Shown here: positions 44,501 through 50,860 of the stretch, piece by piece
How the letters are laid out: each line of letters starts with the position of its first letter
Position numbering within the stretch: the first letter of the stretch is position 1
NCBI GenBank assembly: GCA_012295275.1
Contig: CM022679.1
Location: forward strand, 28,644,001 to 28,708,000
DNA length: 64,000 bases
Direction: 5' to 3'
Source: Chrysomallon squamiferum
Lineage: Eukaryota > Animalia > Mollusca
The notes under the pieces: generated by a model
Seen by the model: only the letters and a program-made list of their open reading frames with translations
What the model was told of the DNA's origin: nothing
Databases searched by the model: none
Made by a program: the position numbers and the translations under genes

Positions 44501-44785
44501 CTCATTTTAACAGCGTATTCGTCTATCCACGTGTTTCATAGAGAGACTTTAGTGTTTTACCAAATCTACTCCTCTGTGTTCAGTAGCCAGATTGAGTTGT
44601 AAAAAACTGTTTTTCTATTTTAGATTTTTCTAATCATTAGAGAAACTGTCACAAAGACAAAACAGTTTATCTCTGAAATTAAGACATCAGAGAAATCTCA
44701 TGCAAGACTAAACACACAAAATAATAGTTTTAAAACAAATTTATTATTCCTTTTCATATTTCCTTTTAGCAGTCTTCTTTTCATC

Positions 44786-47700
44786 TTAAGGATATGAGTA
44801 ATCAGTTCGTTTTCCTGCAATGCAGAACAGAAGAGAATTAAATAAAACAAATTAATAAAAAATATTCAAATCATAAACAAAACAATTAGAAATATCACAT
44901 TACAAATCTCTCGCTCTCTCTTTCTGTGTACCAAAGTTTGTGTTCTTTCTCACTCCATTTCGAACTTCTATATATTTACCACTATATACATAACCGTATG
45001 TTATTATTATTATTATTATTATTATTATTCTTGTTGTTGTTGTTCTTGTTGTTATTATTATAACATAAATAAACATACATTATTTAAAGAGATTGAGAGA
45101 GAGAGCGAGAGACAGATAAAGAGAGAGAGACAGAGACAGACAGACAGACAGAGAGAAACAGAGAGAGAGATACAGAGACAGAGAGACAGACAGAGAGAGA
45201 GACAGAGCCAGAGAGATGTTTACAAGATTCCAATGTTACAGTAAACTAGTTACTTACTTCCCAGAGGGAGGCTCGTTCTGTAAAATATGAAAATATTCAA
45301 ATAAAGAACAACAGGTATAATATTATCTTAGAAAGCTCTCTCTCTCTCTCTCTCTCTCTCTCTCTCTCTCTCTCTCTCTCTCTCTCTCTCTCTCTCTCTC
45401 TCTCTCTCTCTCTCTCTCTCTCTCTCTCTCTCTCTCTCTCTCTGTCTTTTTCAGTCGTTCTCAAACGAACTAAAATTTGTTACCTAACTGATATAAACTG
45501 GTGAAAACTACGATTTCAGTTCGTGCCAATTCCAAGAGAGATACGTTTAACTATGTACAGAGAGAGAGAGAGAGAGAGAGAGAGAGAGAGAGAGAGAGAG
45601 AGAGAGAGAGAGAGAGAGAGACAGAGAGAGAGAGAGAGAGAGAGAGAGAGAGAGAGAGAGAGAGAGAGAGAGAGAGAGAGAGAGAGAGAGAGAGAGAGAG
45701 AGAGAGAGAGAGAGAGAGAGAGAGAGAGAGAGAAAGAGAGAGAGAGAGAGAGAGAGAGAGAGAGAGAGAGAGAGACAGACAGACAGAGAGAGAGAGAGAG
45801 AGAGATAGAGAGAAAGAGAGAGAGTGAGAGAGAGAGAGAGAGAGAGAGAGAGAGAGAGAGAGAGAGAGAGAGAGAGAGTCAGAGAGAGAGAGAGAGAGAG
45901 AGAGAGAGAGAGAGAGAGAGAGAGAGAGAGAGAGAGAGAGAGAGAGAGAGAGATGTTTACAAGATTACTCTGTTACAGAAATCTATTTACTTACTTCCTT
46001 CAGGGAGGTCTCGTTCTGTAAATACGAAAATAATCAAATAAAGAACAATATGGATCGTATTATCTTAGAAAACTGTGATACGTTAACTATCTGATAAAAA
46101 CTAGTGTAAAGAATGATCTTAGTTGAAGAAGCATACAGAGAGAGAGACAACAGCGAGTCAGAGAGAGAGACAAAGACAGAGAGAGCGACAGAGAGAGAGA
46201 GAGAGAGAGAGAGAGAGAGAGAGAGAGAGAGAGAGAGAGAGAGAGAGAGAGAGAGAGAGAGAGAGAGAGAGAGAGAGAGAGAGAGACAGAGAGAGAGATT
46301 TACTAGATTTACTTGATTACACTGATACAGAAAATTTTTCACTTACTTCCAAGAGGGAGGTCTCGATCTATGAAATCTGAAAATATTCAAATCATAAACA
46401 AGATAAATAGTGAGGTCATCTCTCTCTCTCTCTGTCTCTCTCTCTCTCTCTCTCTCTCTCTCTCTCTCTCTCTCTCTCTCTGTCTGTATGTCTCTGTGTG
46501 TGTGTGTATATATGTGTGTTAACTAATATAAACTGATTATAAATGGTTTTATTTCAATGACAGATAATTTTAAATATGTCTGAGTTATATCACACTTTCA
46601 ATATCACAAATATCAGGTTGCAGCAGGCAGAACTTACACATCAAAACAAATACATAAATATATTTTCATTTCGTAGATATTAATATCTAACCTAAGCAAG
46701 CATATTTCAATAAGAGAGAGATACTAGCTTATACTTACATTCTGTTCTAGTATAAAGAGAAAGTGCTTTATCTGTAAAATATGAAAATATTCAAACTGTA
46801 AAGAAGATAAATAACAATGTCATATCAGAAATAGCTCTCTCTCTCTCTCTCTCTCTTTCTCTCTCTCTCTCTCTCTCTCTCTCTATCTCTCTCTCTCTAG
46901 ACAGATAGATAGATGGATGGATGAATAGATAGATAGATAGATAGACAGAGAGATAGATAGATAGATAGATAGATAGATAGATAGATAGATAGATAGATAG
47001 ATAAGAAACTTACTCGTAATGTAGGCCTTTGCATATCCACCACAGTTCCTGAAAAATATTTTAAAATGTCTATATATATATATATATATATATATATAAC
47101 ACTTACTTAAGTTGAAACAAAAAGGCATATCAAATTTTCTACTGATTTGATTTCACAAATAAAGTAATATACTGTAATTATCTAACCAGTTTTTCGAATA
47201 ACTCACTTACTTAATAAATCTAGAAGACACACATAAGTAATATTTTAATTTTTATAAAAATATAGATATAAAAGTAGTTTAGATCAGGATGATGGATCAC
47301 AAAAATAGCACAGGTATATTTAAATTATATGTTTTGTTTAATTTAAGTAAAAGGAAGATTATCATTTGAGAGTGAGTACTGTGCTGTATGGTTAAGAGCT
47401 ATAACATTGTTAACTAACTCCACATGAAACGATTATTATCTAAATATTAAGTATTGTCCTGTCTTCTGACCATCTTAAATGTGTAGCTTGATATTAATTC
47501 GGATATCTGTTTTCTATAAACTAACACCAGCCTTCTCGTTTTTAAAATGAGTTAACAATTCAGAAAACATCTTATCCTTCCGTTCAGTGAGTTAAAATTT
47601 CGATGCCTCTTATTGAAATAATTCAAAACATCTTTTTTTTTTTTTTTTTTTTTTATTTTATTTTTTTTTTTTTGCTGTTGCTGTAGTCTCCTGGCTTCGC

Positions 47701-47982: not shown

Positions 47983-50860
47983 CTCGTGAACAGTTGAAAC
48001 TGAAACAGATCCAAACGTGTTTCATTACATACATTTCTTTTATATATAACTCTCATACCGTTTTACATAACACACACAAACGCACACACACACACACACA
48101 CACACACACACACACACACATATACAGATACATACCTACATACACATATACATATATTCTTTAAAATATGCATATAAGTATATGTGAATATATAAGTATG
48201 AATATGTGTAGATGTTTGTCTGTGTTTGTGTGGAAAGCAGTGGATGTAGTTTTTACTAAATTTTGAAGTAAATCCTAACTTACCTTGAAACAGTTCCAGC
48301 CTTGTACAGCTTAGTAAGACGCATCTCGTGAAATTTATCTGTGTTCTGGGAGTAATTAATTACATCTGTTTCCCCAGAATCGAAAAGCATGACACGTTAA
48401 TTTTGCAAAGAATTCCGATTGGATAGTTTTATTTATACACTGAATGAAATCATCTAAAAGTTTGTTAATGAACCAATTTAATATATATGGATACACTCAT
48501 CTTAAAATAATGTATCTGAAATCAAAACCACTCGTTTGTAAATTTCTATTAGTTAGCGCATTTTGCTTTCGAATTATTAAACAGAGAACCTTCATTAGTT
48601 ACTTTCTGGGTGATTTCATTTAGTGTATAAACGATAGTAACCAATAGAAATTCTTTGCAAAATAAATTGTCATGCGTTTTGATTTCACGGAAACAGATGC
48701 AATTAATTATTTTCAGATCACAGATAAATAACACGACGTGAGTCTCACCCAGCTGTACAAGACAGGAACTGTTATGCATCCATTTTTATACATACATACA
48801 CAACGACAGACAAACACGTACATATGTACACACATACAGTATCATGCATTTGTATTTTATATATAAGAAAGGGAATAAATAATAAAACACGTTTGTATCT
48901 ATTTCAGATTCTGCTGTTCACAATGGTAAAACTATTTCTCTTGTTTCTTCTGCTTTCTCCGCTGTCTGTTTTAACGACTATGACAGAAGAATACTGCAAA
49001 TAAGTAAAACAAATATCTAAACTTCTTCTGATTTCACAAATAATATAAATGTACAGTTTAGTGTTAACTTCTCTCTCTAATGTAAATGTTGTTGTTTTGT
49101 TTTTTGTTTTTTACAGGAATGATAAACAAGGGTGTTTGAAAAGTAAGTATAACTCTGTTGTCTTTTAATAAAATTTAAATGTAAATATATTTTACATTAA
49201 AGAGATGTTTTGTGAGACTTAATATTAAGAACATGTATGATATACCTGCTCAACTTGTGTGTAAAATGTATTTGAAAAATGAAAACACTACAGGAACAGA
49301 AAAAAAAACAAACAAAACAAAAACAAAACAAACAAAACGAAACATTCTGAAATTATTTCTATAAGAGACATCCCAGAAAAAAAGAACAATTTTAACACAC
49401 TGAACAGAAGGATAAGACGGTTTCTGAATTGTTAACTAATTTTAAACATAAGAAGGTTGCTAGAGTAGTTTATAGAAAACAGATGTCCGAATTAATATCA
49501 AACCAAGCATTTAAGATAGTCATAAGAATTAAATATTTAATATTTGGATTATAATCGTTTCATGTGGAGTTAGCTAACAATGTTATATCTCTTGACAATT
49601 CGATTTATACACCACAGTAATCACTGACAAATGATAATCTTCATTTTACTTAAATTAAATATACCTGTTTTAGATTGCGACCAGTCATACTGATTTAAAT
49701 TATTTTTTATATAAATTAAAACATTATTTATGTGTCTGTTATAGACTTATTAAAATAAGTGAGTGATTGGAGAAATTGTTAGGAAAATAATAAGATATTA
49801 TTTTATTCGTTAAATTAAATCAAGTAAGGAATTTGACCTGCCTGTTTGTTGTAAATTAAGTAAGCTATAAAACAGAAATATATATATATATATATTTCTC
49901 TTCTTCAACATCAACATTCTATGTCAACATTTTTAAATATTTTTCAGATCTTATATTAAAAATTATAGTCCCCTTGGAGTAAGTTTCTTATCTATCTATT
50001 TATAGACAACAGTTTGTTTGAGTTCCTTAACGAATTTTCTTTTCTTTTGAGAACAAACAATAGAGAGACAGAGAGAAAGATAGAGTGAGAGAAAGAGAGA
50101 GATAATCAGAGAGAAAGAGAGAGAAACAGAGAGAAAGAGAGAGAGAGATTGAGAATGAGAGATTGAGAGATTGAGAAAGAGAGATTGAGAGAGAGAGAGA
50201 GAGAGAGAGAGAGAGAGAGAGAGAGAGAGAGAGAGAGAGAGAGAGTTTTGTAATATAATAGTAAATTAATGGTTTTCTGCAAATGTGTTATCGTCTACAA
50301 AACAAACCCCTCACCCTCTCTCTCTCTCTCTCTCTCTCTCTCTCTCTCTCTCTCTCTCTCTCTCTCTCTCTCTCTCTCTCTCTTTTTCTCTTAGTCTTTA
50401 TGTCTCTCTGTCTCTCTCTCTTTCTCCTTCTCTCAATTGTGCATGTTTCTTTATGTTACAGATATCTAAGAAATGACAATATATATATATATTTGTTTTG
50501 CCTGCGTTTACCTGATCTTTGGGTACATCATATATATTACTAAAATTATTCTTTACATCAGTTTATATCTGTTAGTTAACAAATTTGACAACAATAATAA
50601 CAGCAGTAGCAACAACAACAGTTAAAACAACAACCACAGTAGCAGAACAACAACAACAACAACTATAATAATAATAATAATAATAATAATAAAAGTGAAT
50701 GTGTGTGTGTGTGTGTGTGTGTGTGTGTGTGTGTGTGTATTTACATTGTTATGAATATATTGTTAAAGAGAGAGAGAGATAATATAATACTATACATATT
50801 GTTCATGAATTGAATATTTTAACATTTTACAGAAAGAGACCTCCCTGATGGAAGTATTGT
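46340..50860. repeat. Diverged inverted duplication, arms about 46340-48475 and 48590-50860, spacer about 115 bp
   Basis: 47521-47600 is the reverse complement of 49390-49470 and 48330-48472 of 48590-48730; exons and introns are colinear. Confidence 0.88.
48923..50853 (+). pseudogene. Micro-exon gene, copy 2 (inverted paralog, probably inactivated)
   Basis: Signal exon MVKLFLLFLLLSPLSVLTTMTEEYC (48923-48999) is followed by ataagt where the paralogs have gtaagt. Micro-exons at 49117-49142 (26 nt), 49948-49978 (31 nt) and 50833-50853 (21 nt, KRDLPDG, weaker donor gtattg). The frame is off by one before the last micro-exon. Confidence 0.65.

Follow-up and report, generated by a model that had tools for sequence, protein, structure and literature searches.

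In the honey bee, the apidaecin precursor starts with a conserved N-terminal part, after which come exons that are repeated, with one processed peptide unit on each; these exons differ in number and sequence, and splice variation has been proposed as a means of tuning (PMC1847501, partial text). In mussels, the myticalins and modiocalins combine a conserved signal sequence with a hypervariable mature peptide of 23–42 residues and a Lys-Arg site with predicted amidation, and both pseudogenes and individual variation are reported (PMC5577615, partial text). The micro-exon genes (MEGs) of schistosomes are described, in the available sections of the source, as restricted to flatworms (PMC4350168). 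A literature search for micro-exon genes in molluscs gave flatworm papers only, or none with the term, and no paper combining Peltospiridae with an antimicrobial peptide was found in the literature search.

The window analysed here is a repeat-rich 64,000-nt stretch of Chrysomallon squamiferum DNA, within which all positions are numbered. It holds a gene on the minus strand, gene A, which forms a local three-gene cluster with two neighbouring paralogues, B and C. The neighbouring USH1G gene is 85% identical to that of Gigantopelta aegis and 48–56% identical to those of other gastropods, and the host is therefore likely a peltospirid vent snail and not a flatworm. Metagenome scans returned no match to the unit motif of gene A, and those with USH1G exon 1 returned 14 loci, all of which were weak, ankyrin-level matches (38–81% over 16–48 residues).

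Exon 1 of gene A (48284..48345, with a provisional 5′ end; minus strand, as are all exons of this gene) is 5′ untranslated, and its last ~30 nt are joined in a contig of the public run X8 to the signal exon, exon 2 (47915..47999), which is supported by X8 depth, has its ATG at 47982 and would include the first mature residues. The mature peptide continues in exon 3 (47014..47048; 35 nt), which is joined to exon 2 in X8, and in exon 4 (46739..46771; 33 nt, phase 1-1), which is recognised by its splice signals and acceptor match and whose inclusion in RNA is suggested by the lengths of the X8 contigs. Two 21-nt exons are predicted from the sequence to follow, exon 5 (46347..46367) with the first R-D-L-P-x-G unit and exon 6 (45995..46015) with a K-R-D-L-P-x-G unit. 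Exon 7 (45258..45277) is 85% similar to the block of exon 6 and, at 20 nt, is one base below sibling length. The terminal exon 8 (44698..44814), with a predicted 3′ end, carries a tribasic site and a six-residue tail; the stop ends at 44786 and an AATAAA lies at 44740–44745. On inspection, a T-rich tract, AG and GTAAGT accompany every internal exon, and all of the minus-strand exons with AG/GTAAGT ends that a preliminary description had listed were confirmed at their positions. Splicing without exon 7 reproduces exactly the 68-residue protein it had claimed. Its assertion that the micro-exons are phase-symmetric holds for the 33- and 21-nt exons and fails for the 35-nt exon, which runs from phase 2 to phase 1. 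The full exon model very probably holds. Exon 7 may be a decayed copy or may reflect an assembly error, because the assembly carries single-base errors in this window.

The splice signals are concentrated well above background. Between 45200 and 48350, GTAAGT occurs 11 times on the minus strand and never on the plus strand, whereas the rest of the window predicts 1.06 for each strand (Poisson P about 2e-8, for a region picked after the fact). Three copies of the 21-nt unit, splice ends included, and three of the shared acceptor are present in the window, compared with 0.00 in 100 shuffles for either; a rough count of micro-exon patterns (18, with double counting, vs a shuffle mean of 1.34 and a maximum of 9) is too crude for weight. 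Four extra GTAAGT sites lie within introns (47827, 47210, 47106 and 46637), the first three of which are passed over in both X8 contigs. Candidate exons of 10 nt (47828–47837) and 9 nt (47211–47219) were rejected for the main form, each being skipped in two of two contigs. The 10-nt candidate is a remnant of an exon retained in paralogues B and C.

A search for public runs gave 22 rows, nine from one organism at shares of 0.22–0.56, with six rows recorded as RNA at a share of 0.06, which carry no weight as evidence. Four runs were compared with the locus: X8 is RNA-like, X1 and X6 are DNA-like, and X9 covers intron only, which says nothing about expression because the records are filtered. Among these four, spliced contigs at the locus were found only in X8. 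Its depth is ~900–1700 over the signal exon vs 0–65 in the flanking introns; one contig joins exon 1 to the signal exon, and both of the contigs that leave the signal exon on the other side enter exon 3, of which the first ~30 nt are read. These contigs extend 88 and 103 nt beyond the signal exon, past the combined length of exons 3 and 4 (68 nt), at mean depths of 365 and 547. Gene A is a real, expressed and spliced micro-exon gene in which exons 1, 2 and 3 are joined. The small signal-peptide precursor from an expressed gene that had been postulated is thus borne out by depth, by these joins and by a hydrophobic core, and the joins proposed from the signal exon onward were found as far as the 35-nt exon, the later junctions lying outside the direct reads; the joins of exons 3 to 8 are predictions from splice signals. 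Compared with the window, the pair of X8 contigs shows five replacement and two silent codon changes within the first 33 codons (two of these seven were taken by eye from loose contig ends), a roughly neutral ratio that does not demonstrate positive selection. The exon 2 changes are also present in the DNA run X1, and the contigs may stem from collapsed copies and not represent two alleles.

The spliced transcript also bears on whether the gene is read as proposed. Translation from the upstream ATG of exon 1, a non-coding transcript, or small exons that are merely a dispersed non-genic repeat are all highly improbable. Exon 1 does carry an out-of-frame ATG that opens a short overlapping frame, but paralogue B has no such ATG, while A, B and C all retain the second ATG and the hydrophobic signal frame. 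A dispersed repeat or a non-coding transcript sits poorly with the splicing of exons 1–3 in X8 and with the confinement of the 21-nt unit, within 64 kb, to genes A and B, on each gene's own strand.

The RNA join to exon 3 sets the reading frame past the signal exon, and in this frame Gly-Lys-Arg (Gly52-Lys53-Arg54) and then Gly-Arg-Lys-Arg would appear, provided that the later exons join as predicted. The hydrophobic core of the signal peptide has a best 11-residue hydropathy of 2.95, starting from residue 6, and cleavage is predicted after residue 17; a search with 22 residues of the signal exon gave no Pfam family. One disulfide, C22–C25, is possible. Cleavage and amidation at Gly-Lys-Arg and Gly-Arg-Lys-Arg are probable, judging from the predicted protein. 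The 68-residue precursor would be secreted and processed by a convertase, a carboxypeptidase and an amidating enzyme into a 34-residue amidated peptide, the likely main product, and one or two four-residue amidated peptides, one for each additional 21-nt exon. The predicted mature peptide is distributed over four exons and is followed by a tail of 17 residues. In the frame set by the RNA join, all three 21-nt units keep R-D-L-P-x-G, differing by a silent Arg change and in the x codon; one of their other frames has stops in two of three units, and the third frame is also open. The preliminary description had one putative amidated peptide for every 21-nt exon. The unit of exon 6 starts with Lys-Arg and is a predicted tetrapeptide, the predicted tetrapeptides being acidic, whereas the first begins with Tyr-Arg and most likely ends the 34-residue peptide instead of becoming a free tetrapeptide.

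Exon skipping had been expected to set both the number and the identity of the peptides. No skipped form was read in X8. Exon 5 alone begins with AT and thereby leaves no stop after exon 4; omitting it, or splicing exon 4 straight to exon 8, gives a stop, so that exon 5 is needed for an open frame and the units are not freely interchangeable. Exon 6 is the only repeat exon skippable without a stop, and its skipping (and that of exon 7, if intact) would alter only the number of tetrapeptides.

Paralogues B and C were overlooked in the preliminary description. Paralogue B (48643..50856, plus strand) is an inverted head-to-head copy of gene A, recognised by sequence likeness, with an exon 1 homologue from ~48717, a signal exon at 48908–48999, further exons at 49117–49142 and 49948–49978, and one 21-nt unit at 50833–50853. 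It is broken as assembled: the signal-exon donor is not GT, the frame is lost before the unit, and the unit has a non-consensus donor; a terminal exon was looked for and not found. Paralogue B may be a pseudogene. Paralogue C (53714..55486, plus strand), a prediction based on splice signals and on its resemblance to gene A, has a signal exon at 53714–53805, exons at 53920–53949 and 54525–54559, and a likely terminal exon from 55356. It has an open 61-residue frame without Gly-Lys-Arg units, which suggests that the core of the family is the N-terminal peptide and that the units are an add-on. The 3′ UTR and AATAAA region of gene A resembles that of paralogue C, and the BLASTP match between the two is confined to the signal peptide. 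The mature-peptide exon has diverged more than the introns across the paralogues, with small counts: exon 3 is 57% identical (16/28 for A-B, 20/35 for A-C), compared with 83% for an A-B intron block (689 columns) and 72–79% for the signal codons. This contrast is weakened if B is a pseudogene.

One acceptor sequence is common to exons 4, 5, 6 and 7, to the beginning of exon 8 and to the paralogue B unit, from which we infer that the tail grew via tandem copying of an intron-plus-exon block with its cleavage and amidation signal. The blocks are 78–85% alike, introns included, and are thus recent, so the likeness of their exons may reflect age and not selection. This would suit an alternative that we consider unlikely, in which the N-terminal peptide alone matters, neutral block duplication among microsatellites has left the 21-nt exons as spare copies of the amidation signal, and the tetrapeptides go to waste. 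The missing base of exon 7, the donor of the paralogue B unit and the ability of paralogue C to manage without units all agree with it. However, exons 5 and 6 retain full splice signals and frame. In addition, one X8 contig ends (+103) at the last base ahead of the variable codon of the second 21-nt unit, which hints at a fork between units; this evidence is indirect, and it would also be accounted for if the two contigs differed by a 15-nt indel.

The explanation we lean towards is that gene A is transcribed and spliced to give a secreted precursor cut into amidated peptides, most likely a defence secretion against microbes; the microbe-facing role, taken by itself, is plausible but tentative. 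In its favour, a conserved signal with a variable mature part, a dibasic site with amidation, and pseudogenes are traits described for myticalins (PMC5577615), and an arrangement of one peptide per exon is described for apidaecin (PMC1847501). The 34-residue peptide has a net side-chain charge of +1, a pI of 7.73 and 5.9% Arg. Of 2000 shuffles, 835 reach its best hydrophobic moment. It is unlike a typical antimicrobial peptide in its low charge, low Arg content and lack of amphipathic excess, which counts against a defence role. An amphipathic helix was considered and rejected, since neither gene A nor paralogue C (1407/2000) rises above shuffles.

The same gene and processing could, with a rather low probability, serve signals between cells or animals that act via receptors, such as a lineage-specific neuropeptide, hormone, pheromone or gamete peptide. 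A near-neutral charge without amphipathic excess is more in keeping with a ligand than with a membrane-active peptide. Reproductive proteins are also fast-evolving, which favours a signalling role. Multi-copy neuropeptide precursors are typically built from short repeats that lie between basic sites and end in Gly (PMC2575521, partial text). On the other hand, RDLPLG, RDLPEG and GYAKAY had no match, and KRDLP and DLPDG only single chance matches in unrelated precursors, in the supplements of a mollusc-wide neuropeptide survey (PMC6425005; six sequence-bearing files, two of them covered in part). The absence of units from paralogue C and the poor conservation of the mature exon even between neighbours likewise speak against signalling. 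Motif searches gave no match in the partly covered supplements of two scaly-foot snail papers (PMC11871041 and PMC7142155), of which the former holds sheets of identifiers and annotations, not sequences, so that these zero matches are no evidence of absence.

By analogy, gene A might even represent a new host-peptide family that manages the symbiont bacteria of the vent snail, with a cleavage-and-amidation cassette of seven codons on an exon to itself and with splicing setting the number of amidated peptides released, a speculative reading with a slim chance of being right. The NCR peptides of legumes and BCR peptides of aphids are models for such host control of symbionts. If it were true, the purpose of single copies in a multi-copy precursor would be testable exon by exon.

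Whatever its role, gene A shows strong transcription in one sample or more, and it lies in a young, fast-changing cluster, a pattern of defence and signalling peptides. Micro-exon genes escape ORF scans and are easily missed by annotation, and the small secreted peptides of vent animals are thus probably undercounted. Copies that share one exon cannot be silenced singly (PMC2575521, partial text), whereas exon 6 could be. With a cleavage site placed on a separate 21-nt exon, a precursor can acquire amidated peptides through a module of minimal size. As apidaecin and the MEGs are precedents, the novelty lies in the family and the module size and not in the principle.

We know of no sequence likeness between apidaecin and gene A. 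One complete unit per repeated exon is seen in gene A in the sequence of exon 6 (and of exon 7, if intact); exon 5 instead ends the long peptide, and the first unit is not skippable. The apidaecin exon encodes 28 residues of a proline-rich antibacterial peptide, whereas the gene A unit has seven codons for an acidic tetrapeptide and its amidation Gly (PMC1847501, partial text). Like the myticalins, gene A belongs to a molluscan multigene family and has a predicted Lys-Arg and amidation Gly after the mature peptide. Myticalins, however, have a pI above 11 and over 10% Arg (vs 7.7 and 5.9% for the 34-residue peptide), an anionic tail of 35–75 residues and a three-exon structure in which exon 2 encodes the entire mature peptide (PMC5577615, partial text), while gene A has two Cys, short repeated units, seven or eight exons and a 17-residue tail. 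Identity with myticalins was rejected, as the peptide is not strongly cationic and the exon layout and tail differ. Gene A resembles schistosome MEGs in its signal peptide, its tiny and in several cases symmetric internal exons set among long introns, its paralogues and its fast change (PMC4350168, partial text). The MEG type that had been suggested was nevertheless rejected: symmetric exons make up 75 of 204 coding bases (33+21+21), too few for the definition given in the available text (PMC4350168), the units bear prohormone-type cleavage sites, and the host is a gastropod. Precursors of the FMRFamide and enterin type likewise have a signal peptide and repeated units flanked by basic residues and Gly, but their copies often share a single exon and are conserved between species (PMC2575521, partial text); in gene A each unit has its own exon, and an intron splits the first basic codon. 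Identity with a catalogued mollusc neuropeptide was rejected, as no family motif was matched, beyond chance hits, in the six supplement files (PMC6425005; two of them covered in part). The best reading of gene A is a secreted precursor that is new and specific to its lineage and that ends, in the manner of apidaecin, in one unit per exon.

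Gene A (44698..48345) is a micro-exon gene on the minus strand of an AT-rich window (GC 0.26–0.40 per 2 kb) dense in microsatellites (210 tandem-repeat rows). Its eight exons lie where the preliminary description placed them, flanked by T-rich tracts, AG and GTAAGT as internal exons require: a 5′ UTR exon (exon 1, 48284..48345), the signal exon (exon 2, 47915..47999), exons of 35 nt (exon 3, 47014..47048) and 33 nt (exon 4, 46739..46771), two of 21 nt (exons 5 and 6, 46347..46367 and 45995..46015), one of 20 nt (exon 7, 45258..45277) and a terminal exon (exon 8, 44698..44814). 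Joined without exon 7, they reproduce the claimed 68-residue product exactly. Between 45200 and 48350, a region chosen post hoc, GTAAGT donors number 11 on the minus strand and none on the plus strand, versus 1.06 expected, and the model accounts for seven of the 11. The motif of the 21-nt unit (encoding Arg-Asp-Leu-Pro-x-Gly) and the shared acceptor sequence are each present in three copies in the window, versus 0.00 in 100 shuffles. Gene A is a real gene. An upstream, out-of-frame ATG in exon 1 (48322–48324, minus strand), in a context resembling that of the main ATG, would start an overlapping short frame.

Four of the 22 listed sequencing runs were compared at 47690–48078. The public run X8 (one run, one sample) is catalogued as "DNA?" without a library record, and run X1 is DNA from the same sample. 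Depth in X8 is about 900–1700 over 47915–48001, but 0 in the immediately flanking intron sequence and 65 deeper in the downstream intron; X8 behaves as RNA. Its loose ends run into the end of exon 1 on one flank (one contig) and into exon 3, for its first 30 bases, on the other (two contigs). The proposed transcript is thus borne out at the exon 1–2 and 2–3 joins, the latter fixing the frame after the signal peptide, but no join was read after exon 3. Candidate exons of 10 and 9 nt in the exon 2–3 intron are skipped in both contigs. These contigs extend 88 and 103 bases beyond the signal exon (mean depth 365 and 547), whereas exons 3 and 4 total only 68; as the legible part is the first 30 loose letters of each, joins past exon 3 and exon skipping were not read in X8. 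The longer contig stops immediately before the variable codon of the second 21-nt unit (+103), as would be expected if exon 6 and a full-length sister unit forked there; a 15-base difference in bubble-arm length would explain it too. The +88 end has no ready explanation.

The last base of exon 4 is T, so that a direct join to exon 8 yields a stop, as would one to exon 6; exon 5, the only one starting with AT, holds the frame open. Exon skipping, proposed to set peptide number and identity, would therefore apply to exon 6 alone, which is freely skippable, and exon 5 is needed for frame. In the assembly, exon 7 throws the reading frame off, giving a read-through of 104 residues; it is either a decayed copy or an assembly error.

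The nearest conserved gene, 3 kb beyond the 3′-end of gene A, is a minus-strand USH1G/SANS homologue with ankyrin and SAM domains (exon 1, 41364–41527; exon 2, about 27337–28590). A 175-residue piece shares 85% identity with USH1G of Gigantopelta aegis and 48–56% with those of Patella, Haliotis, Biomphalaria and Lymnaea (six matches at E 1e-30 or better), which makes a peltospirid vent snail, though not G. aegis itself, the likely source of the window. Exon 2 contains two mutually compensating frame changes within ~1.25 kb, near 28062 and 27655, and when read in the shifted frame it still matches the Gigantopelta protein at 75–88% identity; given this retained identity, they are likely single-base assembly errors. 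A plus-strand gene at 58400–60700 has an F5/8 type C (F-type lectin-like) exon at ~59090–59320, with an internal frame change, a terminal PAN domain exon (60459–60695) and, in the same region, a candidate 27–30 nt exon (58407–58436); a PAN exon fragment is duplicated at 52397–52498 (87% alike). At 19714–20350, a repeat of 105 bases, spaced by (AC)n, carries four minus-strand GTAAGT (19864, 19989, 20231 and 20350), and could be a second small-exon array or a plain minisatellite.

Residues 1–17 of the product form a predicted signal peptide (hydropathy 2.95), with the cut site placed by the small-residue rule. Convertase would cut at Gly-Lys-Arg (52–54) and Gly-Arg-Lys-Arg (59–62), followed by trimming by carboxypeptidase E and amidation by PAM, an established prohormone chemistry stated for molluscan peptides too (PMC5577615). 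This would release a 34-residue peptide (18–51; Cys22, Cys25) together with one amidated tetrapeptide and a tail of six residues. Monobasic cleavage is favoured by basic residues at certain positions. The first unit opens with a lone Arg, preceded by Tyr, and lacks basic residues at those positions, which argues that it is likely the end of the long peptide. The idea of one amidated peptide per 21-nt exon thus narrows to the tetrapeptide predicted from exon 6, while exon 5 probably closes the 34-residue peptide.

Self-comparison identified two plus-strand paralogues, B (48643..50856) and C (53714..55486), and the signal exon is common to all three genes (72–79% over signal codons). B is an inverted head-to-head copy, 70–75% alike over introns and the stretch 48289–48773, which may be a two-way promoter shared with gene A. 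This stretch is an imperfect palindrome (70%) of the head-to-head first exons and promoters, with TATA-like words mirrored; B lacks the upstream ATG. B has one 21-nt unit with a non-consensus donor, its signal-exon donor is not GT as assembled, its third exon fails to carry the frame to the unit, and no terminal exon was found in the window; as assembled, its sequence reads as broken. In the signal-exon frame, the last codons of the third exon of B (49948–49978), which takes the position of exon 3 of gene A, read Pro-Leu-Gly as in exon 5, hinting that this C-terminus could be older than the 21-nt units. One acceptor sequence is common to exons 4–7, the start of exon 8 and the unit of B, suggesting that the tail was lengthened by copying of an intron-plus-exon block. 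A 79-base piece downstream of gene A (43681–43759) is 81% alike to a B intron (49803–49880). The predicted exons of C give an open frame of 61 residues; a 35-nt exon stands in the position of exon 3, the 3′ UTR resembles that of gene A, and the predicted frame has no Gly-Lys-Arg unit. Mature exon 3 is 57% alike in both A–B (16/28) and A–C (20/35), below the 83% of the A–B intron block (572/689). Over the first 33 codons, five replacement and two silent changes (two of the seven read by eye) separate the two X8 contigs from the window sequence; this variation is high, but the ratio is near neutral.

Myticalins are defence peptides with a conserved signal, a variable mature part and individual variation (PMC5577615). 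By analogy, the pattern of the gene A family would be that of defence peptides: the signal is conserved and the mature part variable, the gene has duplicated locally and one copy is broken, and both individual variation and a high depth of transcripts are seen. Defence or symbiont control is tentatively suggested as the role. The long peptide's net charge of +1, pI of 7.7 and lack of amphipathic excess disfavour a plain membrane-killing peptide. The main rival, a signalling role, seems less likely; the accessible supplements of a mollusc neuropeptide survey (PMC6425005) contain no matching family.

For micro-exon genes in molluscs, the open-licence literature yielded only flatworm papers or text without the term, and "Peltospiridae" with "antimicrobial peptide" returned 0 papers in open-licence text. 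Gene A motifs had no match in the accessible portions of the supplements of PMC11871041 and PMC7142155, the remainder of which may hold one. The absence of a known relative is weakly supported, and gene A probably represents a new family. Compared feature by feature, gene A is MEG-like in layout, but is no member of the MEG, apidaecin or myticalin groups. The design of one unit per exon, predicted here for exon 6, is that of apidaecin (PMC1847501), and gene A would operate much as an apidaecin- or myticalin-type precursor does, on a MEG-like gene.
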